Below are positions 7,342 to 48,787 of a stretch of 64,000 nucleotides of DNA, piece after piece. Source of the DNA: a virus; IMG/VR virus record IMGVR_UViG_3300043446_002337, positions 19,769 through 83,768 of that record; one strand, written 5' to 3'. The stretch's first letter is position 1, and each line of letters opens with the position of its first letter. The position numbers and the translations under genes were made by a program. The notes under the pieces are model-generated. The model searched no databases. It had not been told where the DNA came from and saw only the letters and a list, made by a program, of their open reading frames with translations.

Positions 7342-10300
7342 ATGTCCATAGAATTAGATATTCCCGATATTAAAGTTTTAATACGTACAGATCCAAATTA
7401 CAATGTTGTCATTCAAAACCCACGGTCATCTGTATACCGTTCTGGGTCATATGTATCGTTTGCTGAATTAGCATCATCTGCGGTTTCTGCGTCTTTTGCG
7501 ACAACTGCTTCATATGCGGTATCTTCATCATATGCTTCCGCAAATCTATTAACTGCCTCTGTTGCAGGAAATATACTTACATTTACAAAAGGTGACGGAC
7601 AAAATTTTAGTGTTACCTTAAGTACTGGGTCCGTTGATAGTGCATCGTTCGCAACTACAGCCTCATACGCACAAACTATTAACAGACAAATTAGTGGGTC
7701 AGTAGCTATTACGGGTTCTACCACCATTACAGATGATTTAACAGTTCAAGGTATTCTTAGTGCAGAGAAACTATTAGTATCTTCTTCTATCATTTATGAG
7801 TCTGGGTCAACAAAGTTTGGTGATTCATTAGATGATACACATCAGTTTACAGGGTCGGTATCAATAAAAGGACCACTTTCTGCTTCAAGTGGAATTACAG
7901 GGTCATTTAAGGGTGATGGTTCACAACTTACAGGATTAGTTACAGACCTTAGAATTAGTGGATCTACCGGTAGTGATGTTCTTAACCTACTTACAGATGA
8001 TTTAATTGTTAGTGGTGTAAATGGTATCACCACTGTAGTAAGTAATAATAAGTTAACAATTGATGTACCTGTTGGATTAACTGCGTCATTATATGGCACC
8101 GCAAGTGTTGCAGACGGAATTGATGTAGTTATTGCTGGCATATATGAAACTGGAAGTGAAGGAGTTATCATTCCTACACCTTCTGGCGGACTGACTTATA
8201 TCAATAGCGCAAGTTATGCATTAACTGCAAGTTATCTTAATAATAACGTATGGGAAAATATTTCAAATATACCAGACGGATTACTGTCCAGTTCAGTTCA
8301 AGTATATAATCTTCCTGTAGAAAGTGCATCGTATGCAACTACTGCAAGTTATGCAAATGCAAATACAGTAACTACAAATCAAAATTATCCATTTCAAGTT
8401 TTATTTGTTAGTGAATCTAAATTAGCTGTAGATATTGGACCACATTTAGTATTTAATCCATACTCTCACATATTACAAATTAGTGGTGGAACTGGTGTTT
8501 TCGGTGGAGTGGCACAACTAACTCCAAGAGGGCTATCGCTTACATCCGCATCCGCAGTAGAAGTACTCGCATTAAATCATTACGGAATACATATAAAGCA
8601 CGACGGTAATACGATAGGATTAGCAGCACTACCAGTGTCAAGTAGTCCATATATTGCAAATGGTACTCAACCTGGTATATTCGTTACCAGTGGAAGTGAA
8701 TTTGGAAGTGCATATGTGCCATTAGAATTCCAAGGTTCGGGAAGTTATACTGATGGTCGTGTAACTGCAAATAGAAAATTTGTTGCAAAGGAAGGAATCG
8801 AAGTTACGGGTTCACTTACCATTTCTGGTTCTTCTACATTAACAAATATCGGACCCGCCGTATTCAGTGGGTCATTAGATGTCACGGATGGAATCACAGG
8901 TTCGTTATATGGTACTAGTAGTTGGGCAAATACAGCTGTAACCGCTTCATATGTAGTTACCGCAAGTTATGCAATGAATGGTGGTGGCGGTGGTGGTTCT
9001 GGAACATCGGGCACCAGTGGTACCTCTGGACAAAATGGTACCTCTGGTTCTTCTGGTAGCGCAGGAACATCAGGTTCAAGTGGCACCTCTGGAGCAACAG
9101 GAGCAAGTGGAAGTTCAGGAACCTCTGGTTCTACTGGAAGTTCAGGTACATCTGGACAAAATGGAAGTAGTGGAAGTTCAGGTAGTACAGGAACATCGGG
9201 TTCAAGTGGTACTTCTGGAGCAACGGGCGCCAGCGGAAGTTCAGGAACTTCTGGCAGTAGTGGAACTTCCGGACAAAATGGTACGTCAGGAACAACAGGT
9301 AGTAGTGGCACCAGTGGAGAATCTGGAACCAGTGGTTCATCGGGAACCTCTGGAGAATCTGGTACATCTGGTAGCAGTGGAACTTCAGGTGAATCGGGTT
9401 CGTCTGGTACCTCTGGAGAATCTGGAACTAACGGTTCTTCTGGTACATCGGGGTCATCTGGTACAAGTGGTGTAAATGGTGATATTTATTCCACCACATC
9501 ATCTACATCCAATTCAATTGGAACAGGAAACAAAACGTTTACCGTAAATGACAATGGATTAGCATATACCAACGGACAAACAGTTATTGTTGCAAGAGCA
9601 GCAGATTATGCAACACGAATGGAAGGTACTGTAGTTAGTTATAATGATGGTACCGATACATTAGTCATTAATGTAACATCAACTGTAGGTTCTGGTGGAC
9701 CGTATACGGATTGGCAAGTCAACGTAGGTGGTGTCCCGGGACAATCAGGAACTTCTGGTTCTTCTGGAACTTCGGGTAGTAGTGGCACCTCGGGTGAAAC
9801 TGGACCAGCAGGAACTTCTGGTTCCTCGGGCACTTCTGGACAAAATGGTACCTCCGGTACTTCAGGAAGTACAGGAACTAGTGGGTCGTCTGGTACATCG
9901 GGTACAGGATTTAATACCATATCAAATCCAGCAGATAATAGAATATTGACTTCTGATGGAACAACAAATTCCGCCGTAGCAGAATCTAACTTAACATTTA
10001 ATGGGTCAACCCTTACGGTTACAGGTAATCAAATTGTTTCTGGTGCATTGACTGTTACGGGATTACTTACCGTAGCAACAATGTCCACGCAATATGTAAC
10101 TTCGTCCCAATACAACATTGGGGTAAGTAAAATTACATTAAATGATGATGATAATGTTAGATTTGCGGGTATTTCTGTCTATGATTCAGGGTCAACAAAC
10201 GCATCGGCATCTATTTATTGGGACAGTCAAAACCACCATTTCTTATATGAAAATTTAAGTGGGTCTGCATACAAGAGTGCATTAATTATTGCAGGACCAA

Positions 10301-11037
10301 AGAACACTGGGTCATTAGGACAAGAAGTAGGATTAACTACAGGATATATTCCAGTTGCAACAGGCGATGACCATATCAGTAATTCTATTGTATCACAAAG
10401 TGGAACTCAAGTTAGTATTGCAGGAACAGTTCTCGCAACTAACTTTACAAGTTCTATTGTAAATGGAGTAGGATTCTTTGGTACATCGTCATATGCAGTA
10501 TCATCATCACACGCAACAACAGCAACAACTGCAACATCGGTTCTGTCTACACCAGCAACGGCATCATTTGCACTTACCGCGTCATACGCAGCACCGTTGG
10601 GATTACCACAAGGACTGGTATCTAGTAGTACACAGATTGCAAGTTTTGGTAATATTCGTCTAACGGTGGGTACAAGTAGAGCCAATGCATCGGCGTTCTA
10701 TTTTAATTCAAACGTAAGAACTGCGGGTGATTCGGCATCACCTTCCGCAGATACCGCATTTTTAGTTAACTCAACCGGATTGAGTACAGTTACGGTGTAT
10801 TTACGTCAAGACAATGCAAGTACAAATTCTACATTGGTAGGTATTGCTAAAAATGCAAATGGAGCAGCATTTTCTGGGGCAACATTAATCGCCAGTTCTT
10901 CGTTAAACCTAACACAAGATACAATTCAGACATATACTTTCTCTGGATTAACACTAAGTCAATTTGATGCAATTCACATATATTGTGACCCAACTAATAC
11001 ACCAGGTTCATTGTTCGGAGTGGTTGTCGTATCATAG
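7342..11037 (+). CDS. Fibre protein 1 with two Gly-Ser/Thr repeat tracts
   Basis: 1231 aa; TASYA repeats, [20 protein letters not shown] module, (G-S/T-S/T)n tracts. Confidence 0.8.
9001..9480 (+). repeat. Gly-X-Y (GTS/GSS) coding repeat tract
   Basis: 9-nt periodic degenerate repeat encoding [10 protein letters not shown]...; ends approximate. Confidence 0.9.
9739..9906 (+). repeat. Gly-X-Y (GTS/GSS) coding repeat tract
   Basis: Second tract in fibre 1; ends approximate. Confidence 0.9.
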
Positions 11038-11075: not shown

Positions 11076-11675
11076 ATGCCAGCAAATCGTTTTATACCTT
11101 TATACAATAGTCAATACGGAGCAGTACCGACCGCAAGTGCCATGTATGATGGTGAACTTGCGGTTAATATTGCCGATGGTAAGCTATATACCAAGAGTGG
11201 GTCTGCGATTGTTGCATTAAATGACACCACCAATTTTGTATCCAGTAGTGCACAAGTAGTCGGACTGTTGGTAGATACCACAATTGAACCCGCAATCGTC
11301 AAATCTAATGAATTTAGATTAGATGCTGGAACGGTTCATATGACCGTTACGGGGTCCACCAATACGGGAATATTTGGGGCAACGGAAGATGTAAAACCCT
11401 ATATTTCTACTACAGATTATTCAGGAACGACAATTGAATATATCGCTCAACGTCCTGGTGCGACCCGTATTGGAATGGTAATGGCAACATGGTCTGGAAG
11501 TAGTGTAGTATTTACGGATGTCTCCACCGCCGATATTGGGGACACAAAAGACATATCTTTCGGGTTTATTCAATCGGGGAGTTATTTCAAGTTACGAGTA
11601 AACAGTAATGGGTCAGGAAGTGGAGCCTGGACTGTACAAAGTCTATTTAAATTGTTTCCGAATTTGAATTCTTGA
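11076..11675 (+). CDS. Fibre adaptor/connector protein
   Basis: N-terminal VPTASAMYDGELAVNIADGKLY motif typical of tail-fibre N-termini; C-terminal domain homologous to the C-terminus of 11726..14167. Confidence 0.7.
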   Translation: MPANRFIPLYNSQYGAVPTASAMYDGELAVNIADGKLYTKSGSAIVALNDTTNFVSSSAQVVGLLVDTTIEPAIVKSNEFRLDAGTVHMTVTGSTNTGIFGATEDVKPYISTTDYSGTTIEYIAQRPGATRIGMVMATWSGSSVVFTDVSTADIGDTKDISFGFIQSGSYFKLRVNSNGSGSGAWTVQSLFKLFPNLNS

Positions 11676-11725: not shown

Positions 11726-14167
11726 ATGGCGAATGAATTTATTGCACGTAAGGGGCTGATAGTCCTCAATAACGGTGCAAAAGTCACTGGGTCTTTGTTG
11801 GTCCAAGGTGATGTAGAAGCAGTAGGATATAATGTAACCGCATCAAACCTGCAATTACTTGGTAGTGCAAGTATAGCGGGTGATTTGACATTAGGTGGAA
11901 ACCTAACTGTTGGTAATGCAGACATTGATGTTGTCAAGTTTCTGGCGGAAGTTAGTTCGTCCATTCTTCCTGATGTTAATAACTCGTTTGACCTAGGTTC
12001 TCCTACAAAGAACTGGCGTGATTTACACGTAAGTGGAACTGCACATCTTAACAATATTGAAGCAACAAGCGCAACGGGTTCATTCACTGGTTCATTTACT
12101 GGTAATGTCACCGCTACATCATTCGCATTCGATATTGATACTTTTGGAAGCGACCTAACGGGTATTACTGTATCAGGAACAGATAAGTTACTCTTGTCTG
12201 ATTCCGGTACAGACGGACGTATTAACGTCAGTCAATTATCCACACCACTCGCCGGAACTGGTCTTGAAGCAAATGCTGGTACTATTCGTATCGCAGCAGA
12301 TGCAGCTGGTGCTGGTTTAACCGGTGGTGCTGGTTCCGCTCTCGCAGTAGGAGCAGGAAGTGGTATTACCGTAAACGCTGATGATGTAGCACTTAACACG
12401 GGTTCGGCACACTTTATCAGTGGTTCTAGAAATGTTATAACATTTACTGATACTACTGGTGCTAGTGGTATTGATTTCACATATGTCGCAGGAACAGCTT
12501 CCGCAGTACTACAAAATAGTGCAGTTACCGTTACCGCAGGTAGTGGTTTAAGTGGTGGTGGTTCTGTATCACTCGGTGGCACCACCACAGTTACACTTGA
12601 TACCTCATCAGCACACTTTACTGGTGGTGTTAAGAGTAAGTTAAATACAGATGGTGTGGTCAGTAGTTCTGTACAAATTGACCATAATTCTACAACAAAT
12701 TATGTAGCAAACCAACACATTGACCACAGCACAGTATCAATATCTGCAGGAAGTGGTTTAAGTGGTGGTGGTGATATTACCGCAACCCGTACCTTAACAC
12801 TAGATACATCATCTGCACACTTTACTGGCGGTGTTAAGTCCAAGTTAAACCTAGAAGGTGTGGTCAGTAGTTCATCACAAATTGATGTTCGTAACACCAC
12901 TGGTATCGCAACAATTGCAACCACTGGTTCAAATACCTTTACAGGTATTCAAACTATTAGTAATACCACTAATAGCACTAACTATGCAGATGGTGCATTA
13001 ATTGTACAAGGTGGTGTTGGAATTGCTAAGGATGTAAACATTTCTGGTAGTTTGAATGTTACTGGATTACTCAGTGCAGTCAGTATGTCTACTCAATATG
13101 TTACATCTTCACAATATGTTGTTGGTGTAAGTCGTGTAGTAGTTAATGACGACGATAATGTACGATTTGCGGGACTTTCAGTTATTGACTCGGGTTCTAG
13201 CTATGGAACAGGGTCACTCCTTTGGGACAGTTTCAACAATCGTTGGATATATCAAGCAGATGACCAAGCATACAATTCCGCAGTTATCATTGCTGGTCCA
13301 CAAAACACTGGTTCGCTTGGCGATGAAGTTGGATTAATCACCGGTCGTATTCCTGTAGCAGTTGGTGATGACCATATCGATACACGACCCGCAGTTTCAC
13401 CTCTTCGTGTTGCAGGAACCACTTTACACGCAGAAGGTAATGTATACGTCACAGGTTCAGTAACCGCATCTGCATTCTCTGGTGATGGTAGTAACCTTAC
13501 TGGTATCGTCACCAACCTTAACATCAGTGGTTCAGATGGCGGTACTGGAACAGTTTCACTTAAGACACAAGCATTAACTGTTGATGGTACTAACGGTCTT
13601 ACCGCAACAGTCAGTGGTCAAACTATCACGATTAGTGGTAGTGATGCAACAACTACTACGAAGGGTGTTGCATCATTCACTGGTTCAAACTTCACTGTTA
13701 CTGGTGGTGAAGTAAGTGCGAAGGCAATCACATTCAATAGTGTCCCACTCAATCTTGGTTCTTCATACTCATTCGGTCTTGCTAACATCACTTCACAGGG
13801 TGCAACCACTGCAGACCAACTTGTACTCAATGGTGGAGCAGTTATCCACGGTGTCCTCTACAGTTCAGGTAGTAACACCGATGTAGACACTGGTACTGAA
13901 GTAGTTGCATCGGTATCAACTGGTAGTTATGACGCAGCATTCTTCGATTATGTCGTGAAGAAGGGTTCAAACTATCGTGCAGGTACCGTGATGGCAGTAT
14001 GGGAAGCAGGTACCACCAACGTAGAATACACAGATACATCAACAAACGATTTAGGAAATACCGCAGATATCGTGTTTACTGTTGATATCTTGACCGCAAC
14101 TGCACGACTAAAGGCAATCGCAGCAACCAACGATTGGTACATTAAGACCGCAATTCGCGCATTATAA
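11726..14167 (+). CDS. Fibre protein 2
   Basis: 813 aa Gly/Ser/Thr-rich; AGSGLSGGG repeats, GALIVQGGVGIAKDVNI and DLGSPTKNWRDLHV fibre motifs; MANEFIARKGL N-terminus. Confidence 0.8.
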   Translation: MANEFIARKGLIVLNNGAKVTGSLLVQGDVEAVGYNVTASNLQLLGSASIAGDLTLGGNLTVGNADIDVVKFLAEVSSSILPDVNNSFDLGSPTKNWRDLHVSGTAHLNNIEATSATGSFTGSFTGNVTATSFAFDIDTFGSDLTGITVSGTDKLLLSDSGTDGRINVSQLSTPLAGTGLEANAGTIRIAADAAGAGLTGGAGSALAVGAGSGITVNADDVALNTGSAHFISGSRNVITFTDTTGASGIDFTYVAGTASAVLQNSAVTVTAGSGLSGGGSVSLGGTTTVTLDTSSAHFTGGVKSKLNTDGVVSSSVQIDHNSTTNYVANQHIDHSTVSISAGSGLSGGGDITATRTLTLDTSSAHFTGGVKSKLNLEGVVSSSSQIDVRNTTGIATIATTGSNTFTGIQTISNTTNSTNYADGALIVQGGVGIAKDVNISGSLNVTGLLSAVSMSTQYVTSSQYVVGVSRVVVNDDDNVRFAGLSVIDSGSSYGTGSLLWDSFNNRWIYQADDQAYNSAVIIAGPQNTGSLGDEVGLITGRIPVAVGDDHIDTRPAVSPLRVAGTTLHAEGNVYVTGSVTASAFSGDGSNLTGIVTNLNISGSDGGTGTVSLKTQALTVDGTNGLTATVSGQTITISGSDATTTTKGVASFTGSNFTVTGGEVSAKAITFNSVPLNLGSSYSFGLANITSQGATTADQLVLNGGAVIHGVLYSSGSNTDVDTGTEVVASVSTGSYDAAFFDYVVKKGSNYRAGTVMAVWEAGTTNVEYTDTSTNDLGNTADIVFTVDILTATARLKAIAATNDWYIKTAIRAL
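12536..12885 (+). repeat. Internal duplication of about 48 codons in fibre 2
   Basis: AGSGLSGGG...TLDTSSAHFTGGVKSKLN..GVVSSS.QID at about 12536-12682 and 12746-12885. Confidence 0.85.
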
Positions 14168-14231: not shown

Positions 14232-17200
14232 ATGGCAAATGAATTTATAGCCAGAAAGGGACTGATAGTCCCTACTGGTAGTATTAATGTTATATCTGGG
14301 GCGGTTACCGCATCTTATTTTAAAGGTGATGGTAGTCAATTAATCAATCTTCCGGCGACTAGTACTTCGTCGGTTACCATTACCTCAAATACATTTACGG
14401 GTAATGGAACACAAACCCAGTTTGACTTAGGTACATCATATTACATAGATTCCCTTTTTATTAGTGTTGATGGTTTATTTTACGCACCATTAACAGACTA
14501 TACGATTTCTGGTTCAATAGTCACCTTTATATCCGCACCACCAACAGAATCAATTATTAATGTACGTTCACTCATCAATACTGTTGATGGTGGTGTTGGT
14601 ACATTTAGTGGTTCATTTATTGGTACAATTTCATCTGCGTCATATTCTGTAACATCCAGTTATGCCGAAATAGCAAACTTTGCATTAACCCCATCTGGTA
14701 CCTCAGGAACATCTGGTACCAGTGGGGTTTCCGGTACATCTGGAAGTTCGGGTACAACAGGTAGTAGTGGTACTACGGGAACTTCAGGTAGTTCTGGTTC
14801 AACCGGTACATCTGGTGAATCTGGTACGAGTGGGTCATCCGGAACATCAGGTTCGAGTGGTACTTCAGGCTCATCAGGTACAAGTGGTTCTTCTGGGACT
14901 GGTGGAAGTTCAGGTACATCAGGAACATCTGGCTCGTCTGGTGAATCGGGAACCTCAGGTAGCTCAGGCACATCAGGCACTTCTGGTTCTTCTGGAACGA
15001 GCGGTAGTTCGGGTACATCAGGTTCATCAGGAACAAGTGGTAGTTCTGGAACCGCGGGGTCAAGTGGTACATCAGGTACATTAGCTCTCACAGGGTCTAC
15101 CGATAATGGATTAATTACATTAAATGGAAGCGCACCCAATGCTACCGTCGAAAGTAACTTAACGTTTGATGGTAGTTCGTTGGTTGTTATTGGCGATGTT
15201 ACAGCAAGTAATATCCGTGTAGATGGTACCGCATCCATCCGAAGACTTGAAACACAATTTGTCACTTCATCAATAATTTATGAAAGTGGTTCCACGAAAT
15301 TTGGTGATAGTCTAGACGACACACATCAATTTACGGGTTCATTAGATATCACAGGGTCACTCATCATAAATGGGACATCATATACTGCCGCAACGTCAGG
15401 AACAGCCGGTACTTCTGGGTCAAGTGGAACTGCTGGTTCATCAGGAACAAGTGGTAGTTCTGGAACCGCGGGAAGTTCTGGCACATCAGGTAGTTCTGGT
15501 ACATCTGGTTCGTCTGGTAGTTCCGGAACAACAGGTACGAGTGGTTCATCTGGTGTAGATGGTACCTCTGGTAGTTCTGGAACTAGTGGCACATCGGGTA
15601 GTTCAGGTTCTACAGGTACGTCCGGTTCGTCTGGTAGTACGGGTTCGTCTGGAACTTCTGGAAGTTCTGGAACATCAGGTTCTTCTGGGTCCACAGGAAC
15701 CTCTGGTTCCTCTGGTTCTACCGGAACTTCAGGTAGTTCTGGAAGTACCGGAACAAGCGGTAGTTCTGGATCTTCGGGAACATCAGGTTCAACAGGAACG
15801 AGTGGTAGTTCTGGAAGTACCGGAACCAGTGGAAGTAGTGGAACTTCAGGTAGTTCTGGAAGTACTGGTACATCGGGTAGTTCTGGTACCAGTGGTTCCT
15901 CAGGAACATCTGGTTCATCTGGTACCGCAGGAAGTTCGGGAACTAGTGGTACAGGATTTACTACTATCTCTGGAGCGGTAAATAATAGAATATTAACCTC
16001 AGACGGTTCAGCTAATGCCGCTGTTGCAGAACCAAATCTAACATTTGATGGAAGTTCACTAGTAGTTGTTGGAGCAGTTACCGCAAGTAGTTTACGAGTT
16101 GACGGTACTGCATCTATCCGAAGACTTGAAACACAGTTTGTCACTTCATCTATTATTTTTGAAAGTGGGTCAACCAAATTTGGTGATAGTTTAGACGACA
16201 CCCATCAGTTCACAGGGTCAGTAGGAATTACAGGCTCAACATTAACGGTAACTGGAGTAATCACCACATCTGGTAATATTACCGCAGGAGGCAACCTTAT
16301 ATCCAATAACTCCGCGGGTGATGAAGGTGGAGAAATTCTATTAGCAAAACCACAAACTAATAATACATTAACTGGTAGTGGCGTAACGATTGACCTTTAT
16401 CAAAACAGAGTAAGAATATTTGAACAAGGCGGGGCTGCCCGTGGTGGATATTGGGATATTAGCACATTGGCTGCCGGTGTTGGAACAAACTTCTTAACTG
16501 CCGGCTCATCGGGTACCTCCGGTTCTTCCGGAACTAGTGGAAGTTCTGGTTCTTCAGGAACCTCTGGCTCCTCTGGTTCAACAGGAACAAGTGGAAGTTC
16601 CGGTTCCACAGGAACATCAGGTTCAGCAGGTACTTCAGGAACATCAGGTTCAAGTGGTACCGCAGGAACCTCTGGTAGTTCTGGTTCAACTGGTACTTCG
16701 GGTTCAAGTGGAACTACGGGAACGTCTGGTTCCTCTGGTTCAACAGGAACCAGTGGAAGTAGTGGAACTTCAGGTAGTTCTGGTACAACTGGAAGCTCGG
16801 GTTCAACAGGAACCAGTGGTAGTTCTGGTACAACTGGAACTTCAGGTTCATCTGGTACAACTGGTAGTAGTGGAACCTCTGGTAGTTCCGGTTCTACAGG
16901 TACGTCAGGTTCCTCTGGAACTTCAGGATCATCAGGTACAACGGGAAGTTCTGGTACAGCTGGTTCGTCGGGAACTTCTGGTACGTTAGCACTCACTGGA
17001 TCAACTGATAACGGTTTAATTACATTAAATGGTACTGCTCCTAGTGCAACAGTAGAAAGTAATCTTACATTCAATGGGTCATTGTTAAATGTTATTGGTT
17101 CAGTATCTGCATCAACAGGATTTACTGGTTCATTGTTTGGAACAAGTAGTTGGGCAACACAAGCGGCAACTGCATCATACATTTCTGGTGGATTATCAAT

Positions 17201-20968: not shown

Positions 20969-20997
20969 TTGACAAAAATTATAGTCTAATATATATT
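20969..20997 (+). promoter_or_regulatory. Sigma70-type promoter heading the enzyme cluster
   Basis: TTGACA-17 nt-TATATT, upstream of GAGG SD and ATG 21031. Confidence 0.8.
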
Positions 20998-40539: not shown

Positions 40540-40773
40540 ATGACACAGGATATTAGGGAAGATAAAAAAAGAACAATGTTAAAAACAGTTACGTGGCGTA
40601 TCGTAGCAGTATTTAATTCGTGGATAATATTATCAATTGGTATTGGTAACACAAATTTACAAAAAGCATTGTTGATGAATAGTACTGGATTTTTTGTATT
40701 TTATTTTTTTGAAAGAGTGTGGAGTAAAATAAATTATGGTAGATATGTTATGGGGGATACTGTAAATGAGTAA
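40540..40773 (+). CDS. DUF2061-like small membrane protein
   Basis: KT.TWR...YFFERVW.KI.YG pattern. Confidence 0.7.
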   Translation: MTQDIREDKKRTMLKTVTWRIVAVFNSWIILSIGIGNTNLQKALLMNSTGFFVFYFFERVWSKINYGRYVMGDTVNE

Positions 40774-41771: not shown

Positions 41772-42311
41772 ATGAGTAAACCGAGCATGAGTCCTTATAA
41801 AGATTCTTTAACGGACATAATGACAACGTTAGCACAAGACGAAAATACTATATTTATCGGACAACAGATAGTATATGCCGGTAATCCTATGAGTACTACA
41901 CTAGGTAATGTACCCAAAGAAAAAATGATAGAAGTTCCCGTTATGGAAGAAACACAAATGGGAATGACGTTGGGGTTAGCTATAACTGGAAAAACTGTAG
42001 TTTCTTTTTACCCACGTTGGGATTTTATAGTTTCCGCAACAAATCAATTGGTAAATCATGTTGATAAGTATGAGTTAATGACCGGTAAAAAAGTTAATAT
42101 ATTAATTCGTTTAGGAAAGGGTAGTGATGTACCACTTGACCCAGGACACCAACACAAAAACGACTACCTCACAGAATTTTCTTCTATGTGTAAAAACATA
42201 ACGTTCCACAATTTATCAGATGTAACAAAAATAAAACCTGCATACCAATCTGCTATAGAAAACGGTGGCATACATATACTCGTAGAATATCCACAATTAT
42301 ATTTTGTATGA
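41772..42311 (+). CDS. ThDP-dependent enzyme, E1-beta/transketolase pyrimidine-binding subunit
   Basis: IFIGQ, EVPVMEE..MG..LGLA..G, DF....NQLVN, G.QH motifs; lacks C-terminal domain. Confidence 0.82.
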   Translation: MSKPSMSPYKDSLTDIMTTLAQDENTIFIGQQIVYAGNPMSTTLGNVPKEKMIEVPVMEETQMGMTLGLAITGKTVVSFYPRWDFIVSATNQLVNHVDKYELMTGKKVNILIRLGKGSDVPLDPGHQHKNDYLTEFSSMCKNITFHNLSDVTKIKPAYQSAIENGGIHILVEYPQLYFV

Positions 42312-43111
42312 AAAAGAAACTTCTAATAACACTAGGATGTTCGTTTACTGAGGGAGTGGGTTGTTATGACCCACTGTTATTAGATACAAATGGTAAACCT
42401 ATATACGACGAGGGGTTGGTTTACAATTCAAGTGTAGACAGATTTCATACATTAGGTTGGCCAGCTAAACTACAAAAAAAATTACAATATGATTGTTTGT
42501 GGAACCTAGGGCATGGGGCAGCTTCTAATTCTGAAAATGTTAAACGATGGACAGAGATATTCTCAACAAAAAAGATTTCAGACGAGTACGATGTATTAGT
42601 AATATGGATGCTTACATTTTCTGGTAGGATAAGTTTTTATAAAGATGGTAAAATTCGCAGTGTACTACCAGGAAGTAAAAATCCGACAGATGTAAATCAT
42701 ATCTTCTATAACAGTTATCTAAATTTTCTTGGAGATAACTTTAATAAAGATATGATACTAGAGATGTATTTTTATGTTAATATAATAAAAACAATATGTG
42801 AACTATCAAATTACAAGTTTTTATATATTAATACGAGTAATAGTGAAGGAAGAGATTTAGATTTACTAACAAAGAGCACCAACAGCTTAAACTTTGCATA
42901 CAAAACACTATATCCAGAATATAATAGTGTGTTAGATAGAAATGATTACGCAAAGTATTCTGCGTTTTGTGGTCACCCAAACGAAAATGGTTACGAACTT
43001 ATTGCAGAACGGTTATTCCAGATGATATTACACGAACACAAATATTTAGTAAACAATAATACACCAGAAACATACGACATGCTATATTTGGGAGAACCCA
43101 GACAGTGGTAA
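42308..43111 (+). CDS. SGNH/GDSL-like protein
   Basis: LGCSFTEGVG, NLG.GAASN, GHPNENGY..IA. Confidence 0.65.
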   Translation: MKKKLLITLGCSFTEGVGCYDPLLLDTNGKPIYDEGLVYNSSVDRFHTLGWPAKLQKKLQYDCLWNLGHGAASNSENVKRWTEIFSTKKISDEYDVLVIWMLTFSGRISFYKDGKIRSVLPGSKNPTDVNHIFYNSYLNFLGDNFNKDMILEMYFYVNIIKTICELSNYKFLYINTSNSEGRDLDLLTKSTNSLNFAYKTLYPEYNSVLDRNDYAKYSAFCGHPNENGYELIAERLFQMILHEHKYLVNNNTPETYDMLYLGEPRQW

Positions 43112-44556
43112 TTTGGGGAATTTCAGCAAATAGTCATGATGCTGCCATCACGGTGATTGAAGATAAAGAAATCTTGTTTGCATCACAATCCGAAAGATAC
43201 TCAGGTGTGAAGAATGATGCTCATTTAAATTCTGGTATTGTTATTGATGCAAAAAGATATGGAGAGCCAGATTTAGTTGTATGGTATGAAACACCATGGT
43301 TAAAATCATTACGACAACTACGGTCTGGTCAGGGGTGGATATCCAATAATGTTAGAAAATATCTAAATCAATATAACATCTCCGCACCATTTACTACTGT
43401 AGGTCATCATCACAGTCATGCAGCAGGAGGATACTACACCTCTAACTTTGATGAAGCCGCCATCTTGGTGATTGATGCCATTGGTGAGTTTGATACCACA
43501 ACCATTTGGTATGGAAAGGGAACCAAGTTGGAAAAGAAGTTTTCCATTAAATATCCTCATAGTTTGGGATTATGGTATTCTGCCATGACGCAACGTGTAG
43601 GATTGAAACCAAACGAAGAAGAATACATTCTCATGGGTATGGCGGCATATGGCGACCCATTTAAATATGCACCTACGATGTTAGAGGATTTCTTTGACAG
43701 TAAACATATGTTGAAGTTGAATCATAATCTTCATCGGGGATGTATGTGGTGGCGTCCTGAATTAAACACGGAACAGGACAAATATGATATTGCTGCCGCC
43801 ACACAATTCATCTATGAAATGATGTTCCATGATTTACTGGATGAAGCCAAGAAACTCACAGGAAGTAAAAACTTAGTGCTAGGCGGTGGGTGTGCCTTGA
43901 ATTGTGTCGCTAACAGCATCGCCTTTCAGTATTTTGAACGTGTCTGGATTATGCCAAACCCAGGTGATGCCGGAAATAGTTTAGGTGCTGTGTTGGGATA
44001 TACAAACGAACATATATCATTTATATCACCGTTTTTAGGATATGATATAAAAGGAGAATATCCAATAGAGGGATTGACTTCTGAGTTAAAAAATGTTAAA
44101 ATAGTAGGTGTAGCGAACGGGAAAGCGGAATTCGGTCCTAGAGCGTTGGGTAATCGTAGTTTATTAGCAGACCCACGTGGTACTGGAGTCAAGGATAAAG
44201 TAAATGAAATTAAACGTAGACAAAAATTCCGTCCGTTCGCCCCGTCTATCTTACAAGAACACGTACATGATTATTTCCATATCGTAACACCATATAGTCC
44301 ATACATGCAATTTGTTGCAACGTGTAAACGACCAGACGAATTTCCTGCAATTATTCATATAGATGGAACCTCGCGAGTACAGACGGTAACAGAGCAAGAT
44401 AATCCAGGATACTATCAATTACTGAAAGTTTGGTATGAAGAGACTGGATGTCCTATGTTACTAAACACTAGTTTGAATATTAAAGGTAAGCCAATTGTGA
44501 ATACGATAGATGATGCAAAAATGTTCCAGAACAAATATAATATAAAGGTATTATAA
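43105..44556 (+). CDS. Carbamoyltransferase (NodU/CmcH/TobZ family)
   Basis: HDAA, HHHSHAA, IDAIGE, MGMAAYG, GGCALNCVAN, EFGPRALGNRS, RPFAP, NTSLN. Confidence 0.93.
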   Translation: MVIWGISANSHDAAITVIEDKEILFASQSERYSGVKNDAHLNSGIVIDAKRYGEPDLVVWYETPWLKSLRQLRSGQGWISNNVRKYLNQYNISAPFTTVGHHHSHAAGGYYTSNFDEAAILVIDAIGEFDTTTIWYGKGTKLEKKFSIKYPHSLGLWYSAMTQRVGLKPNEEEYILMGMAAYGDPFKYAPTMLEDFFDSKHMLKLNHNLHRGCMWWRPELNTEQDKYDIAAATQFIYEMMFHDLLDEAKKLTGSKNLVLGGGCALNCVANSIAFQYFERVWIMPNPGDAGNSLGAVLGYTNEHISFISPFLGYDIKGEYPIEGLTSELKNVKIVGVANGKAEFGPRALGNRSLLADPRGTGVKDKVNEIKRRQKFRPFAPSILQEHVHDYFHIVTPYSPYMQFVATCKRPDEFPAIIHIDGTSRVQTVTEQDNPGYYQLLKVWYEETGCPMLLNTSLNIKGKPIVNTIDDAKMFQNKYNIKVL

Positions 44557-44792
44557 TGACGGTTCATATAAAGCGACACATAGCAAAAGCAATGTCCTAT
44601 CGGTTATTAGGAAGTTTACAAACTATAATAATAGGATACATATTAACTGGTAATGTGTATATATCATCTGCGGTAGGGCTCATAGAGTTAATAATTAAAC
44701 CAGTTATATACTTTATACATGAACGAGTGTGGTACAAGTATATACCATACGGAATTGAACATAACAACAAACAAAGAGGTTTACCATCATGA
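44556..44792 (+). CDS. DUF2061-like small membrane protein
   Basis: RHIAKA.SYR...K..IYFIHERVW. Confidence 0.75.
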   Translation: MTVHIKRHIAKAMSYRLLGSLQTIIIGYILTGNVYISSAVGLIELIIKPVIYFIHERVWYKYIPYGIEHNNKQRGLPS

Positions 44793-45205
44793 CACAAAGA
44801 AAATATTTACATACACTAGGCGACCTAGTGGACAGATTAAGTATCGTCCAACTTAAAGAAGTATTCATCCCAGAATATAAAAATGAGTATTCGCAAGAAA
44901 TTCAAGATATTGTACATGATATACAATTAATTTTAGACGAAACCTCAGGACAAATAACAGCAGAAACAATTCGTGCTATAGTAGTAGTATCTCAGATGAA
45001 TCTTCATATTTGGCATAATGAATCAAATTATCGTAGAGGTATAAAAGATGGTAATAACCTAGAACTTACCCACGGACTCAACGGTATCCGTAATACAGCA
45101 AAGAATGTCATTCAAGAAGTTGTTGGGGGAAGAAAAGATTATAAAGTTGATTGTTTAGCGGCAGACTTTAAAGATTGGGAAATAAGTTGGAATAAAAAAA
45201 ATTAG
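44789..45205 (+). CDS. Hypothetical helical protein
   Basis: GDLVDRLSI..LK and N..IW..E...R motifs; coupled to neighbours. Confidence 0.65.
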   Translation: MTQRKYLHTLGDLVDRLSIVQLKEVFIPEYKNEYSQEIQDIVHDIQLILDETSGQITAETIRAIVVVSQMNLHIWHNESNYRRGIKDGNNLELTHGLNGIRNTAKNVIQEVVGGRKDYKVDCLAADFKDWEISWNKKN

Positions 45206-45206
45206 T

Positions 45207-45644
45207 ATGAGAATTTTACTATTTGGATTGCCTGGTTCTGGAAAGACTACGTTAGCACAAGAACTAGTTAAGTTATTACCTAATACGGGACACTTAAACG
45301 CGGATACTATTCGTAAGACGTTTGACGATTGGGATTTTAGTCCAACTGGTAGAGAACGACAAGCAACACGTATGAGAACGATGGCGGATGACTTATTGGT
45401 AAATAACCATACTCAGTATGTGGTTGCAGATTTTGTTGCCCCAACCTCCGAATTGAGAGCTATTTACGAACCACATTTTGCTGTATGGATGGATACTATT
45501 ATGGTTGGTCGTTACGAAGATACTAACAAGGCGTGGAAAATACCGACCGAACAAGAATATCACTATAGAATTACCCAATTTAATCCCGTGCAAGAGGAGG
45601 CACAACGAGTATGCAATTTAATTCTAAATCACCCACGGGGTTGA
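45207..45644 (+). CDS. cysC: Adenylyl-sulfate kinase-like P-loop kinase
   Basis: GLPGSGKTTLA, LNAD.IR, DFS..GR.RQ, FVAPT. Confidence 0.72.
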   Translation: MRILLFGLPGSGKTTLAQELVKLLPNTGHLNADTIRKTFDDWDFSPTGRERQATRMRTMADDLLVNNHTQYVVADFVAPTSELRAIYEPHFAVWMDTIMVGRYEDTNKAWKIPTEQEYHYRITQFNPVQEEAQRVCNLILNHPRG

Positions 45645-45967
45645 TGATTGGACGGTTTCAACCGTGGCACAAGGGGCATCGTACTCTTTTTGAGAGGATT
45701 TTAGAGAAAGAGGGTCAAGTCTGTATAGTAATCCGTGACACACAAGGAACCAGCGATAAAGACCCTCTTGATGCCGAAACTGTGGTCACTAACATCCATC
45801 ACGACTTGGAAGCAGATTATTACGGAAAGTACACGATTCACGTACTACCAAATATTACGGGTGTATATTATGGTCGGGATGTGGGGTATAAGGTAGAAAA
45901 AATTGACTTAGACCCTCAAATTGAGTCCATTAGCGCAACCCAAATTCGGAAGGAAATGGGGTTATAA
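45611..45967 (+). CDS. HIGH-motif nucleotidyltransferase (cytidylyltransferase/NMNAT-like)
   Basis: GRFQPWHKGH and ISATQIR motifs. Confidence 0.82.
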   Translation: MQFNSKSPTGLMIGRFQPWHKGHRTLFERILEKEGQVCIVIRDTQGTSDKDPLDAETVVTNIHHDLEADYYGKYTIHVLPNITGVYYGRDVGYKVEKIDLDPQIESISATQIRKEMGL

Positions 45968-45981: not shown

Positions 45982-46563
45982 ATGAGAGTAACTATACCTG
46001 AAGATTGTAAAAATATTAATGTATTGTTTTCTGGTGGGGTAGATAGTAGTTTACTGTTGTTTCTTTTGATGCAAGAACGGTTGGAAACAAAAAACCCAGT
46101 CCCAATTATGTGTTACAATATGTGGGTAGGGTACCAAGGAAATGTATCATTCGGAAAGGCGTACATTAAAGTATCAGAATGGATTTCTAATTATTTCAAT
46201 GAAAATATACCAGTACAGGTAATATCAAAGGTATATATTAGAGACGCGGTTTCTAACATTCTTTTAATCAACCCAGGATATGTATATACTGGATGTAACT
46301 TGGTGTTAGATAATAAGTTTACACCATCGGTATATCTGAGTGGTGATACACCACCAGTAAGGGGTCCCGCTCTAAATGAATTTCATTTACGACCATTTAT
46401 TGATATACCAAAAGATGTTATTATACAAGAATACAAAAGATTGAATATTTTGGAGTTATTAAAAATAACTGTTTCGTGTGGAGTTTCTGATACACCTTGC
46501 GGTGGATGTTATTTTTGTATGGAACGGCAGTGGGGTATTAAAGAGGCAGGAATCGTCATATAA
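45982..46563 (+). CDS. QueC-like PP-loop ATPase
   Basis: FSGGVDS, RPF...K, SC.....CGGCYFC.ER Zn motif. Confidence 0.75.
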   Translation: MRVTIPEDCKNINVLFSGGVDSSLLLFLLMQERLETKNPVPIMCYNMWVGYQGNVSFGKAYIKVSEWISNYFNENIPVQVISKVYIRDAVSNILLINPGYVYTGCNLVLDNKFTPSVYLSGDTPPVRGPALNEFHLRPFIDIPKDVIIQEYKRLNILELLKITVSCGVSDTPCGGCYFCMERQWGIKEAGIVI

Positions 46564-46574
46564 CAGAGTATAAT

Positions 46575-48119
46575 ATGAAATATAATGTAATTTACAACAA
46601 AAGTATAGATTTAAATACACTACGTTCTACACTAGAAGGAACAGGGGTCGTAGTGAATGATATATTTGAATCTATCGGAGTGATTAATCTTACCGCATCG
46701 GATACATCATTTTCTTCTATAGACGGTGTATTATCGTTTGAACTAGAACAAGAAATGACGATGGAACCGTGTGACGATTGGCATCTTCGTAGAATAAACA
46801 CTGCAGCATTACCCATCAGACCTATGTACTTACCTAAAAATACGGGAAACGGGTCCGTAGTATATCTTGTTGATACAGGAGTTGATACCACACACCCGGA
46901 GTTATCTGGTGCGAATGTGGTGAATCTTTGGAGTTATGATGGAACGTTTACCGATTCACTGGGGCATGGTACCGCGATGGCTAGTGTTATTGTTGGAAAC
47001 ACACTAGGTGTTGTTAAAGATTCCACAATAAAAGTAGTGAAAATACCATACGGTGCGGGAGTTACTAACACTACATTATTACAAGCATTTGATACTATAC
47101 TTACTGACCACTTATCAACACCATCAACGGTGAAGGTTGTTAACTGTTCTTGGGTAATTGCTAAGAGTCAAGTACTTGATACGAAAATCGCAGAACTACA
47201 AAGTAATGGGTTAGTGGTTGTGGCAGCAGCAGGTAATCAAGTACAAGCGGCAGATAACTATTCACCAGTTGGTCTTGATACAGTTATTGGTGTAGCTGCA
47301 GCAGACGCGTATGACAGAGTAATTAATTGGTCTACTGGTGTTGGAAGTAACTGGGGGCCTGAAGTAGATATCACTGCGCCTGGTATTGACATATCTTGTG
47401 CACAAAGTGATGGTACTATTGGTACATCCTCTGGTACTTCTTTAGCAGCGGCAATAGTATCTGGTGTTGTTGCGCAATTTGTAACACAAAATACAACAAT
47501 GACAGCAGCACAAATTCAAACCGCTGTTATTGACCATAGTAAAGAAGATTTATTGTTTAGAAACGAAGCAATATATGGAACAACTCCAAACCGTTTACTA
47601 CAATGTCTTTTCTTTGGTGGTATATTTACACAACCAAATATACTAAATGAAACAGATAAAATTTTTGTACAAAAAGGAACTACACAAACTTTTGCCATAG
47701 AAGTAGCAGGAAGTGCACCTGTCGCTAGATTAAGTATAGCGGAATTTCAAACAGGAAGAATTACTAGAATTCCTCCTAGTTGGGTAAGTTTAGATACTAC
47801 TACTAATATAATAACATTCTCGCCACCAGTAGAATTAGATACTAAAAAGTACATGGTATTTGTGGAGGCATTAAGTGCAGACGATATCCAAGTTGGATAT
47901 GTCAGATTTATTGTTCATGTATACACCGACTCACCCTCAGAATTGTCAACAGAAAACAAGCCTGAATATTATACAGCAAACCCAACAACTAATACAATTA
48001 TCCTTGCATTAGCATACTGTTATACAGGGTCTTGTCCATCCAATTGTTCTGGATTTGCTACTAAGGGTGGTGGTTTTTGCGCTTGTTCGTGGACATACGG
48101 AGCTTGTAATAGTTCATGA
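46575..48119 (+). CDS. S8 (subtilisin-like) serine protease with prodomain, Ig-like domain and Cys-rich tail
   Basis: VDTG (Asp), GHGT (His), AAGN (oxyanion Asn), SGTS (Ser). Confidence 0.9.
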   Translation: MKYNVIYNKSIDLNTLRSTLEGTGVVVNDIFESIGVINLTASDTSFSSIDGVLSFELEQEMTMEPCDDWHLRRINTAALPIRPMYLPKNTGNGSVVYLVDTGVDTTHPELSGANVVNLWSYDGTFTDSLGHGTAMASVIVGNTLGVVKDSTIKVVKIPYGAGVTNTTLLQAFDTILTDHLSTPSTVKVVNCSWVIAKSQVLDTKIAELQSNGLVVVAAAGNQVQAADNYSPVGLDTVIGVAAADAYDRVINWSTGVGSNWGPEVDITAPGIDISCAQSDGTIGTSSGTSLAAAIVSGVVAQFVTQNTTMTAAQIQTAVIDHSKEDLLFRNEAIYGTTPNRLLQCLFFGGIFTQPNILNETDKIFVQKGTTQTFAIEVAGSAPVARLSIAEFQTGRITRIPPSWVSLDTTTNIITFSPPVELDTKKYMVFVEALSADDIQVGYVRFIVHVYTDSPSELSTENKPEYYTANPTTNTIILALAYCYTGSCPSNCSGFATKGGGFCACSWTYGACNSS

Positions 48120-48787
48120 TTCTAACATCATTGGTTTCTGGTGAAAAATATTTTTGGATAAAAGTTCCGAGAACGGCGACTATCGCTTATAATGAATTGT
48201 TTTTGAGATACTACAAAGATGATGTTCTACGTTGTCAAACACATGACCCAGCTAAAGGAACATTACATATGCATTATTCATATGTAAGTTTATGTGAATT
48301 ATATAACCAAAAACTTTCTGGTGTTACTGTAGTACGTCATCCGTTCACTAGATTTGTATCGGGTTTACATCAATTAAAATTGTTATCATTGGAACACAAT
48401 TTTAAAGTTCCTTTCTTAGAATCTACGTCATCGTGTATAGAGTTTTTACAGAAACATTTTGGTAAAAATTGTAACACGTCTGCCGATATTCGTGATTTGA
48501 TTTTGGAAGCGGACCCAACAATGAGTATAGCGTTTTTTCATCTACAAATTTATTTCATGTATAATCCAAAAGTAACTTGGTTTAAATATGAATCCATACA
48601 TGATTTTAATGATTGGATTACTGAAAAGTTAGGGTACGATGTGAATTTATTGACCAGAACAAATGAGTCTAATAAAGAACTGTTATCCCATCTGGAGTTC
48701 ACCAATAGAGAATTTGTTGAAGTAGTAGAAAATATGTTTTATGATGATTACAAGTTTTTGAATTATCCATTTGAGTATACAAAGTAG
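48116..48787 (+). CDS. Sulfotransferase (Sulfotransfer_2-like)
   Basis: IKVPRTAT 5'-PSB motif, VRHPFTRFVSG 3'-PB motif, terminal Y.DD...LNY. Confidence 0.75.
   Translation: MILTSLVSGEKYFWIKVPRTATIAYNELFLRYYKDDVLRCQTHDPAKGTLHMHYSYVSLCELYNQKLSGVTVVRHPFTRFVSGLHQLKLLSLEHNFKVPFLESTSSCIEFLQKHFGKNCNTSADIRDLILEADPTMSIAFFHLQIYFMYNPKVTWFKYESIHDFNDWITEKLGYDVNLLTRTNESNKELLSHLEFTNREFVEVVENMFYDDYKFLNYPFEYTK

Follow-up and report, generated by a model that had tools for sequence, protein, structure and literature searches.

An uncultured T4-like aquatic myovirus, known from the IMG/VR virus record IMGVR_UViG_3300043446_002337, may glycosylate its own tail fibers. The stretch analyzed here, hereafter the window, is 64,000 nucleotides long and corresponds to bases 19769-83768 of that 83,768-base record, whose estimated completeness is 42%. 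Three of its fiber genes encode long collagen-like tracts dominated by Gly, Ser and Thr, and the last fiber gene is followed directly by a 28 kb cluster of 30 open reading frames (ORFs) on the same strand (21031-48787), just where the first-pass annotation of this DNA had placed a cluster for glycan synthesis. We tentatively favor the reading that these phage enzymes O-glycosylate the fiber tracts, giving a glycosylated virion, while stopping short of calling it probable. If it is true, hundreds of abundant uncultured aquatic phages would produce a glycan coat for the very organs with which they recognize their hosts, with a bearing on adsorption, particle stability, grazing, decay in water and the stabilization of collagen helices without proline, and the default 'host lipopolysaccharide (LPS) modification' reading of sugar islands in T4-like marine and freshwater phages would be overturned.

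Collagen-like tail fibers

The window spans the structural region of this phage. According to Pfam and PHROGs, it encodes a T4-type major capsid protein, adaptor, tail sheath and tube, after which come four fiber genes and then the glycan cluster, and all 51 of its long ORFs lie on the + strand, to which every window coordinate below refers. Terminase, portal and prohead protease genes are found in the 19.8 kb upstream of the window. Judged by the sheath protein, Microcystis phage Mel-JY01 is closest among named phages (46.9% identity), followed by an uncultured 484 kb phage (41.8%) and by Flavobacterium phage immuto (40.5%); we found no literature on Mel-JY01. The cluster DNA (24 kb, megablast) has no match among 50,697 GenBank phage records.

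Fiber protein F1 (7342-11037, 1231 residues), which matches PHROG tail fiber families, carries two tracts (9001-9486 and 9730-9900; Pfam Collagen 8e-28). F3 (14232-18635, 1467 residues) is 41% tract, divided among four (14697-15083, 15399-15947, 16503-16988 and 17484-17861; Pfam Collagen 9e-79), and F4 (18707-20770, 687 residues) holds two (18932-19228 and 19907-20248; Pfam Collagen 2e-31) and ends in a C-terminal Peptidase_S74 domain (3.5e-16). F2 (11726-14167, 813 residues) lacks a Gly-X-Y tract and has non-repeat modules in common with F1 and F4. A smaller fiber-related protein between F1 and F2 (11076-11675, 199 residues) resembles the C-terminal part of F2 and has weak matches to PHROG tail-fiber N-terminal families. 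By their sequence the tracts are collagen-like Gly-X-Y repeats, the three fibers scoring 96, 260 and 108 bits against the Pfam Collagen model (PF01391; cut-off 27.2). A regular-expression scan for at least eight uninterrupted Gly-X-Y triplets returned nine segments, two of them only 3 residues apart and joined to give eight tracts, with 343 triplets or 1029 residues in total; the first-pass count of eight (G-S/T-S/T)n tracts on three fiber genes, estimated at roughly 1000 residues, is thereby borne out.

The composition of these tracts is unusual for collagen. The X positions are filled by Thr (163) and Ser (158) and the Y positions by Ser (258), Thr (51) and Ala (21), so that Ser or Thr occupies 630 of the 686 X/Y positions (92%). 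At these positions Pro occurs 2 times, Asp or Glu 9 times and Lys or Arg never. AGT and TCN codons are mixed among the tract serines, so the repeat is maintained at the protein level. By the criteria in the sections of PMC11923368 cited here, the usual stabilizers of collagen are Pro or hydroxyproline at X/Y and Lys-Asp/Glu charge pairs, and the tracts lack both. The same sections describe viral collagen-like proteins as unusually rich in KGD/KGE charge pairs, report that (Gly-Pro-Thr)10 needs galactosylation of its Thr to be anything other than a random coil, and treat Thr glycosylation as a documented alternative collagen stabilizer, linking the Thr richness of bacterial collagens to it (BclA; Riftia cuticle collagen). 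For tracts without Pro and charge pairs, a dense O-glycan would thus be a reasonable route to folding or stiffening. The surroundings are compatible with a triple helix, as the tracts are flanked by fiber modules and the S74 domain at the end of F4 is an intramolecular trimer chaperone. Separately, a 210-residue ORF downstream of the cluster (50784-51416) contains a short Gly-X-Y stretch (Pfam Collagen E 0.013) and has weak PHROG tail-fiber matches.

Glycosyltransferases and sugar-tailoring enzymes

The cluster opens with a pair of overlapping genes. The second (21486-22181, 231 residues) encodes a protein that, on its predicted model, is a GT-A fold glycosyltransferase with a conserved DxD motif and a downstream His metal ligand. 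Across 22 sequences, the most distant at 45% identity, the motifs WLDSDM (the DxD site) and GEDF and the residue H202 never vary. The model (predicted local distance difference test, pLDDT, 88.3) is matched most closely by A197 of Sulfolobus turreted icosahedral virus (STIV; Z 18.8, root-mean-square deviation 2.1, 24% identity), followed by the LH3/ColGalT1 collagen glycosylation complex (Z 16.9), Mimivirus R699 (16.6) and Mnn9 (16.0), with a step down to generic GT2 enzymes at Z 13.6 (SpsA). Foldseek agrees on these neighbors, with E values of 5e-11 to 1e-8 for the A197/collagen-glycosyltransferase/Mnn9 group. These nearest structures (STIV A197, the LH3 glycosyltransferase domain, COLGALT1, Mimivirus R699 and the GT62 enzyme Mnn9) are all DxD GT-A enzymes, with identities to the window protein of only 11-24% for STIV A197, the collagen glycosyltransferases and Mnn9; collagen glycosyltransferases, moreover, act on hydroxylysine, whereas the window's tracts have no Lys. 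An earlier label of 'GT2' holds at the level of the GT-A fold and the invariant DxD motif, and not as family membership: the match to Pfam Glycos_transf_2 has an E value of 0.12 (12.7 bits; cut-off 23.3), that to Pfam Anp1 reaches 27.3 bits under a cut-off of 28.8, and no Pfam family is attained.

A census of this GT-A protein found 119 relatives in viral contigs; 80 loci were kept and dereplicated at 95% into 38 lineages. The 152-residue partner (21031-21489), which overlaps the start of the GT-A gene and matches no known family in Pfam, PHROGs or NCBIfam, stands directly upstream of it in all 38. A complex prediction for the two scored 0.00, which gives no verdict and is used here neither for nor against binding. 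A third protein (22174-23295, 373 residues) travels with the GT-A gene in lineages of at least 60% identity; it has no family match in Pfam, PHROGs or NCBIfam, and language-model comparison gives weak leads to GT2 and GT92 (0.86 and 0.85, below 0.9) and otherwise unnamed viral clusters. We considered it as a member of the GT-B family described below and rejected this, since the GT-B profile aligns to it with an hhalign E value of 0.41.

The GT-A gene is embedded among virion structural genes almost wherever we find it. A homolog of the S74-bearing fiber F4 precedes the pair in 37 of the 38 lineages, and among the 55 GenBank phage records with a GT-A homolog, the four inspected all place it in a structural module: between the capsid gene and the tail genes in MW202711, MW202496 and Mel-JY34, and among tail-collar fiber genes in ACG-2014f. 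Such an arrangement has a precedent, as mycobacteriophage-encoded glycosyltransferases beside structural genes glycosylate virion proteins (Freeman et al. 2023, as cited in PMC12619734). The acceptors in those phages are, in that account, the C-termini of the capsid and tail-tube subunits of siphoviruses; in the window, the candidate acceptors are collagen-like tracts of myovirus fibers accompanied by a 28 kb sugar-tailoring cassette. In three phages of 39-44 kb (L260 MW202711, L261 Mel-JY34 and L272 MW202496) the GT-A homolog directly follows the major capsid gene with no sugar cassette nearby. From this gene order these phages are candidates for capsid or tail glycosylation, with Mel-JY34 offering a cultured system.

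Farther into the cluster are three paralogous proteins, established as such by sequence comparison and assigned a GT-B fold from a model: 27703-29160 (485 residues; BLASTP E values of 1e-23 and 8e-27 to the other two), 32970-34370 and 34354-35685, of which the last two are 35% identical. The fold comes from an alignment-based model of 32970 (pLDDT 84.7), which Foldseek matches to OtsA, SdgB and GtfA with a probability of 1.0. An all-against-all structural search yields a tied group headed by T4 beta-glucosyltransferase (Z 10.6) and also containing an Actinobacillus glucosyltransferase (10.4), T4 alpha-glucosyltransferase (10.1), FUT9 (9.7, with the lowest root-mean-square deviation at 4.2), Gtf3 (9.2), POGLUT2 and POGLUT1 (9.0 and 8.9), Helicobacter pylori FucT (8.9) and FUT13 (8.8). 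The stretch T343-E344-T345 ... E355-K356-x-F-x-P is invariant in 18 sequences of the family and resembles, by eye, what we take to be the C-terminal nucleotide-binding motif of GT10, an acidic-Lys pair after a short conserved stretch. The first-pass annotation had spoken of four GT10-like proteins. Three GT-B paralogs stand. The fourth candidate (37448-38608, 386 residues) is a possible distant member and not established, with an hhalign E value of 0.018 over 69 columns covering the conserved C-terminal motif. The GT10 label is at most tentative for the family: Pfam GT10 (PF00852) matches none of the four proteins even at E ≤ 5, the family profile finds only a chance match among PDB sequences (E 0.15) and the fold matches are tied; language-model comparison of 32970 leads to GT10 at only 0.79 and otherwise to unnamed viral clusters. 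Protein glycosyltransferases of the TibC/BAHT type gave no NCBIfam match in the 31 proteins scanned at E ≤ 0.01.

As far as sequence searches go, this GT-B family is nearly phage-exclusive. It comprises 557 metagenome proteins and at least 524 loci on viral contigs, compared with only 8 loci in a prokaryotic set of one genome each from 185,579 species, mostly on short contigs of metagenome-assembled genomes; a tblastn search with the GT-B protein found no match in the 50,697 GenBank phage records. Just one locus falls on a long bacterial contig, from Saprospiraceae, and as an orphan gene without sugar context it gives no hint of function. In two close relatives, the best GT-B match (G015:C1:20295-21329 and G016:C1:43057-44058) contains one in-frame TAA; the gene could be split or broken there, or two genes could lie side by side.

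The prominence of T4 DNA glucosyltransferases among these matches raises the alternative that the GT-B enzymes attach tailored sugars to modified bases in the phage's own DNA, evading host nucleases. Viral glycosyltransferases do hypermodify DNA with diverse glycans, according to work cited in PMC12619734, and the cluster contains a PP-loop/QueC-like gene. The T4 rows, however, are tied to within 1-2 Z units with FUT9, Gtf3 and POGLUT, and a hydroxymethylase of the thymidylate synthase family (PF00303) is absent from the window's 83.8 kb contig and from the complete genomes G001 and G002, which carry the cassette, while G021 and G023 each have one ThyA-like gene; as the contig is only 42% complete, a base-modifying gene could sit elsewhere in the genome. 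We also know of no DNA glycan that is carbamoylated, sulfated or built with branched-sugar chemistry, and we regard DNA as a very improbable target.

The sugar-tailoring part of the cluster is richer in recognizable families, and Pfam and NCBIfam uphold most of its earlier labels: RmlC, three short-chain dehydrogenases/reductases (SDRs), both halves of a thiamine diphosphate (ThDP) enzyme, radical S-adenosylmethionine (SAM) proteins, a carbamoyltransferase and a sulfotransferase. The RmlC-like nucleoside diphosphate (NDP)-4-keto-6-deoxyhexose 3,5-epimerase (29157-29714; Pfam 3.4e-33, 115 bits against a cut-off of 27) scores 115.8 bits with TIGR01221, below the equivalog cut-off of 155.75, and is therefore assigned to the family and not to a specificity. 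The SDRs, all of the extended type, comprise a GDP-fucose-synthase-like protein (35687-36691; Pfam Epimerase 5e-34), a 4,6-dehydratase-like protein (38550-39590; 4e-45) and a third member (39598-40536; 2e-34); their best NCBIfam matches are dTDP-glucose 4,6-dehydratase, GDP-fucose synthase and GalE, all sub-equivalog. The ThDP enzyme is split, with an E1 alpha-like half (29644-30336; Pfam E1_dh 1.7e-13) lying 11 kb from an E1 beta-like, pyrimidine-binding half (41772-42311; Pfam Transket_pyr 1.8e-6, 28.2 bits against a cut-off of 27). A fused alpha+beta form, PHROG 34187, occurs in cyanophages S-SM2 and P-TIM68, and the beta-like half matches its second half. Two paralogous twitch-domain radical SAM proteins (24032-25480 and 25483-26931; 39% identical) score 308.9 and 277.7 bits with NCBIfam NF033640 (cut-off 170), and a third radical SAM protein (30341-31540, 399 residues; Pfam Radical_SAM 1.6e-12) precedes a HAD-type phosphatase (31537-32010; Pfam HAD_PNKP 8e-18) and a 332-residue protein (31967-32965) that is conserved with these two, occurs in 15 of 74 module loci and has no family or PDB match.

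Decoration of the sugar is suggested by a NodU/NolO-type carbamoyltransferase (43105-44556; Pfam Carbam_trans_C 3e-56, PHROG 1601 7e-110) and a sulfotransferase-like protein (48116-48787; Pfam Sulfotransfer_2 1.6e-5, 25.6 bits against a cut-off of 22). Upstream of the latter, an APS-kinase-like P-loop kinase (45207-45644; Pfam APS_kinase, 31.7 bits against 21.1), a HIGH-type nucleotidyltransferase (45611-45967; Pfam CTP_transf_like, 28 against 21) and a PP-loop ATPase (45982-46563; Pfam QueC, 29 against 22) have weak NCBIfam matches to CysD and sulfurylase, and on these resemblances they are a possible sulfate-activation trio. Together with the sulfotransferase-like gene they may form a small set for sulfate activation and transfer; PHROG 10255 is a fused form of the kinase and nucleotidyltransferase.

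Other labels find no backing in sequence searches. The 208-residue protein at 23409-24035, earlier called a methyltransferase, has no significant match in Pfam, PHROGs, NCBIfam or PDB sequences (its PDB hit to a putative methyltransferase has an E value of 0.94). Three proteins earlier labeled SGNH-like, at 26903-27709 (268 residues), 40766-41770 (334 residues; in 38 of 74 module loci) and 42308-43111 (267 residues), have no significant family match in Pfam, PHROGs or NCBIfam, nor has 40766 a PDB match. A small protein (44789-45205) is up to 88% identical across module loci. Single-sequence PDB searches with 23409, 40766, 44789 and 31967 returned nothing significant, and the 12 cluster ORFs without a Pfam match at E ≤ 0.01 gave insignificant matches only when rescanned at E ≤ 5. 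The cluster also includes a 2-oxoglutarate-Fe(II) oxygenase with a prolyl-4-hydroxylase-type domain (36707-37435; Pfam 2OG-FeII_Oxy_3 1e-7) and a 514-residue S8 subtilase (46575-48119; Pfam Peptidase_S8 1.4e-29), although the tracts are nearly free of Pro and have no Lys.

What is absent from the cluster bears on the question of the acceptor. A hydropathy scan found no convincing transmembrane segment in any of the 30 cluster proteins, the window's sole multi-segment membrane protein (55031-56770) lying outside the cluster, and Pfam and NCBIfam give no match to a flippase, polymerase, ABC exporter or initiating phosphoglycosyl transferase in 21031-48787. The cluster thus has the tailoring enzymes and several glycosyltransferases of an O-antigen or capsule cluster and lacks its initiating and export parts, in agreement, as far as these searches reach, with the earlier observation that no Wzx, Wzy, ABC or lipid-carrier genes are visible. 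An RmlA-type sugar-1-phosphate nucleotidyltransferase was not seen in the cluster either, and the starting NDP-sugar would therefore come from the host.

Candidate acceptors and the distribution of the modules

Acceptor, sugars and order of steps in the scheme that follows are ones we infer from the observed sequences and neighborhoods, the modeled folds and the lack of membrane and export parts. The fiber genes have acquired long collagen-like tracts of Gly-Ser/Thr-Ser/Thr, free of proline and charge, and two gene sets lie directly behind the last of them: the fiber-linked 152-residue protein and GT-A enzyme, followed by the 373-residue protein, and a phage-specific cytoplasmic cassette. The cassette would tailor an NDP-deoxyhexose through the 4,6-dehydratase-like SDR, the RmlC-like epimerase and the reductase/epimerase SDRs; the split ThDP enzyme would add a two-carbon branch, and radical SAM chemistry would alter the sugar further. 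Carbamoylation and possibly sulfation would decorate it, and the three or four GT-B enzymes would transfer it. A plausible product is a sugar of 6-deoxyhexose type with a two-carbon branch, radical-SAM-dependent changes, an O-carbamoyl group and perhaps sulfate. Late in infection, the GT-A enzyme would prime Ser/Thr hydroxyls of newly made fibers in the cytoplasm, the GT-B enzymes would extend the primed glycan with tailored sugars, and the resulting dense O-glycan would stabilize or stiffen an otherwise unstable triple helix, giving a coat that is hydrated, protease-resistant or adhesive.

A soluble enzyme set, a fiber-tied GT-A and a phage-restricted GT-B family fit a cytoplasmic protein acceptor. 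A stronger version of this proposal holds that a phage-only pathway makes a branched, carbamoylated, perhaps sulfated deoxy-sugar glycan, O-linked to nearly every tract Ser/Thr, that makes the triple helix fold in place of hydroxyproline or salt bridges, with the GT-A/21031 pair as a fiber-specific initiator and the virus-restricted GT-B enzymes as a new class of protein-glycan extenders. Taken as a whole we find this unlikely; if it were true, a bacterial virus would have a collagen whose folding depends on glycosylation. Whichever molecule accepts the glycan, the cassette combines a near phage-exclusive GT-B family with an unusual enzyme set, namely the split ThDP enzyme, the pair of twitch radical SAM proteins and the carbamoyl- and sulfotransferase.

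Several known systems resemble parts of this scheme. Mimivirus decorates a Ser/Thr-rich surface fibril by means of a virus-encoded sugar pathway and glycosyltransferases. Serine-rich-repeat adhesin systems (GtfA/B, Gtf3, SdgB) similarly combine an operon-encoded sugar pathway with glycosyltransferases that act in the cytoplasm on a Ser/Thr-rich surface fiber; Gtf3 (Z 9.2), SdgB and GtfA are among the GT-B matches, at the level of fold only and tied with many GT-B enzymes. A parallel to the tracts is offered by BclA of the Bacillus exosporium and BclA3-SgtA of Clostridioides difficile, in which a Thr-rich collagen-like surface filament is O-glycosylated on its repeats by a cytoplasmic glycosyltransferase (PMC7157674 and, for BclA, PMC11923368); SgtA adds beta-O-linked N-acetylglucosamine to Thr of BclA3 collagen-repeat peptides in vitro (PMC7157674). 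Those repeats contain Pro (Gly-Pro-Thr type) and sit on spores, whereas the window's tracts have essentially no Pro, carry more Ser than Thr at Y, belong to a phage fiber and are accompanied by a far larger enzyme set. Already in print are mycobacteriophage virion glycosylation (PMC12619734), the mixing of fiber, glycosyltransferase and radical SAM genes in hypervariable regions of aquatic myophages (PMC7029224) and the Gly-X-Y ORFs of P-SSM2 (PMC1079782). In our literature search we found no paper showing or proposing glycosylation of collagen-like phage fibers.

The islands of aquatic T4-like myophages have similar ingredients and another published interpretation. In PMC7029224 and PMC1079782, as in S-SM2, a hypervariable region mixes tail fibers (some with Gly-X-Y), epimerases, glycosyltransferases and radical SAM genes, and the published reading there is host O-chain modification. 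Applied to the window, the cassette sugars would be put on host lipid-linked intermediates (O-chain, capsule, S-layer) via the host's carrier, flippase and polymerase, with the tracts as unmodified spacers; the infected cell's surface would be altered, for example excluding competing phages. The 'host recognition cluster' of pelagimyophages and cyanomyophages, with its tail fibers, glycosyltransferases, LPS-type genes and radical SAM cassettes, is read in this way in PMC7029224; P-SSM2, with 24 'LPS' genes and Gly-X-Y ORFs (PMC1079782), is comparable, and PMC12801897 also gives an O-chain reading of comparable islands. In the sugar island of S-SM2, the fused homolog of the ThDP enzyme is surrounded by non-structural genes, the cassette families are those of O-antigen and capsule pathways, and the cassette is variable in position and occurs without tracts and without a full GT-A homolog. 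Against this, the 30 genes include no initiating phosphoglycosyl transferase, flippase, polymerase, ligase, ABC exporter or membrane protein; the GT-A pair is tied to structural genes; a GT-B family so rare in prokaryotes would be odd for genes borrowed for a host pathway, and, unlike the ThDP homolog shared with S-SM2 and P-TIM68, it has no match in GenBank phage records; and a lytic T4-like phage would probably be short of time to re-surface a cell. We judge host-envelope remodeling, and with it an altered surface of the infected cell, to be somewhat unlikely.

Fiber glycosylation would lead one to expect tracts and glycan genes to travel together. Our co-occurrence searches were anchored on the GT-B, fiber or GT-A genes, and each count is biased by its anchor and carries no phylogenetic correction. 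The GT-B-anchored set takes in 10 kb on either side of 74 loci. Synteny holds for the core of the cassette, as 65 loci have E1 beta, 62-69 the SDRs, 59 E1 alpha, 57 RmlC and 44 the twitch radical SAM protein, while gene order and content are mosaic. The large sugar module is a separable mobile cassette. The fiber-anchored set contains 73 loci, with whole-contig searches covering 11 of 15 contigs (all except L102, L125, L126 and L131). In it, close relatives (sheath 88-91% identical) repeat the window's gene order; in G033/G034 the tracts are followed by 21031/21486 homologs and then directly by the cassette; the divergent contig L126 has Ser/Thr-rich (S/T) tracts (550 triplets) and directly after them the 21031/21486 homologs; and L131 has S/T-tract fibers (683 triplets) followed by a homolog of the radical SAM gene 24032. 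Among contigs searched whole, those with low-S/T tracts (G007-G010 and G014) have neither GT-B nor GT-A (0/5 for each), while GT-B is found in three of four S/T-rich contigs (G006, G015 and G016; none in G013, which is 44% complete), a comparison of small numbers in which two of the three GT-B-positive contigs are close kin of the window. In this sample, then, S/T-rich tracts occur mostly in genomes that also have phage glycosyltransferases, and glycosyltransferase elements often occur without tracts.

Among the GT-A-anchored lineages, an S/T tract lies within 4 kb upstream in both lineages of at least 92% identity and, as S/T-rich tracts, in 17 of the 19 lineages of 46-56% identity, one of the two exceptions being a lineage whose sequence reaches just 1.1 kb upstream. 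In the 60-89% group, L185 carries a single tract of 29 triplets at a distance of 5.4 kb upstream of GT-A. The cassette is absent from the locus in 34 of the 38 lineages, GT-B being seen in 4 and radical SAM genes in 12. For Mel-JY01, the nearest cultured relative, 42 kb were inspected and contain no tract; nor does this phage appear among the matches to GT-B (no phage record matched) or among the 30 of 55 GT-A records listed. We read the tracts, the GT-A pair and the cassette as three modules that can be separated from one another.

This separability invites a further alternative, in which two unrelated systems happen to be adjacent: 21031 and GT-A, perhaps with 22174, would serve the fiber through glycosylation or assembly help, and the cassette would be an independent mobile island with another target (the glycan of the host, a different virion protein, a soluble product) that landed in a hypervariable fiber region. 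The 34 GT-A lineages without the cassette in the locus and the mosaic order of the 74 cassette loci speak for it, as do complete genomes that carry the cassette without a full GT-A homolog (none in G002 and G021; partial weak profile matches in G001 and G023, the latter at E 3.2e-4) and the distance of about 36 kb between GT-A and cassette in G024/G035. Yet the cassette directly follows the GT-A set in the window lineage and in G033/G034, a lone GT-A without its own sugar supply would still require donor sugars, and the co-directional block that the genes form suggests co-expression. We consider two unrelated systems improbable.

Returning to O-glycosylation of the fibers by the phage's own enzymes, a number of observations weigh against it. 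A glycan on the fiber is inferred at every step, and none has been observed on any protein. The structural matches of the GT-B family are tied among DNA glucosyltransferases, fucosyltransferases and protein O-glycosyltransferases, and Ser exceeds Thr at the tract Y positions (258 and 51), unlike the precedents with Thr in Y. Solubility is shared by O-antigen glycosyltransferases, and the flippase and polymerase could come from a host. No tract of at least eight triplets occurs in any of the 74 cassette loci, a count for which the range of plus or minus 10 kb is short, as the GT-B anchor in the window itself sits 12 kb from the last fiber. In G001, a complete relative of 238 kb whose capsid, tube and sheath proteins are 61%, 59% and 44% identical to the window's, the cassette lies at 169-182 kb and the fibers at 207-215 kb, at least 25 kb apart; G001 has no Gly-X-Y tract of at least six triplets anywhere in the genome and no BLASTP match to 21486, for which the GT-A profile gives a partial weak match (E 1.9e-4). 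When 20 cassette-bearing contigs were searched with the Collagen model, three scored above the cut-off, and their tracts are Gln-rich (G020, S/T 0-0.37), middling in S/T (G026, 0.39-0.46) or Pro-rich (G018); none of the four cassette contigs of 95-100% completeness (among them G002, G021 and G023) did so. A fairly close lineage, G024/G035, has both cassette and GT-A and no collagen match in 69-101 kb (101 kb for G024). In GT-A lineages of 60-89% identity the fibers are tract-less within 4 kb upstream (0/17), and none of the four inspected GenBank GT-A loci (MW202711, MW202496, Mel-JY34 and ACG-2014f) has an S/T tract. Finally, the published readings of similar islands, in PMC7029224 and PMC1079782, favor a change of host LPS.

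The first-pass annotation had proposed that the phage makes its own sugars and O-glycosylates the fibers in the cytoplasm, and had looked to the co-occurrence of repeat fibers and cluster in relatives to decide. The soluble enzyme set and the fiber-tied GT-A speak for the proposal, and the presence of the cassette in tract-less relatives speaks against it. Fibers and cluster do go together in the window lineage and in G033/G034, whereas G001 has the cassette without tracts, and G002, G021 and G023 have it without a Collagen match above the cut-off; the independent distribution that would have counted against the proposal is thus seen in part, with the cassette lying elsewhere in tract-less complete relatives.

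Neighboring genes and transcription signals

Signals for transcription add little. A T4-type late-promoter consensus motif has 12 matches where 9.7 are expected and is not enriched, and so gives no evidence on timing. Scans for sigma70 promoters and terminators gave counts at or below those in shuffled sequences. Between 6.3 and 26 kb, the top-scoring sigma70-like site (20969-20997, 11/12 matches) falls in the 260-base gap between F4 and 21031 and is not relied on here, and the sole strong terminator-like hairpin (6913-6941) follows the tube gene.

Pfam and PHROGs also recognize several genes downstream of the cluster. An SNF2-family helicase gene (52120-54045) is found among the structural genes, directly before that of a T4 baseplate protein. 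A giant protein of 1154 residues (58773-62237) has an N-terminal VanY D-Ala-D-Ala carboxypeptidase domain and is probably a tail-associated cell-wall hydrolase. The tail and baseplate region ends with a 512-residue RCC1-repeat (beta-propeller) protein (62243-63781; Pfam WD40_RLD 5e-66), which is unusual for a phage structural module. Upstream of the window, just before the terminase region, the record encodes a 960-residue protein with a cytidylyltransferase-like domain (L262 (G000:C1) 3647-6529), and Mel-JY01 has a 'cytidylyltransferase like protein' in a similar position.

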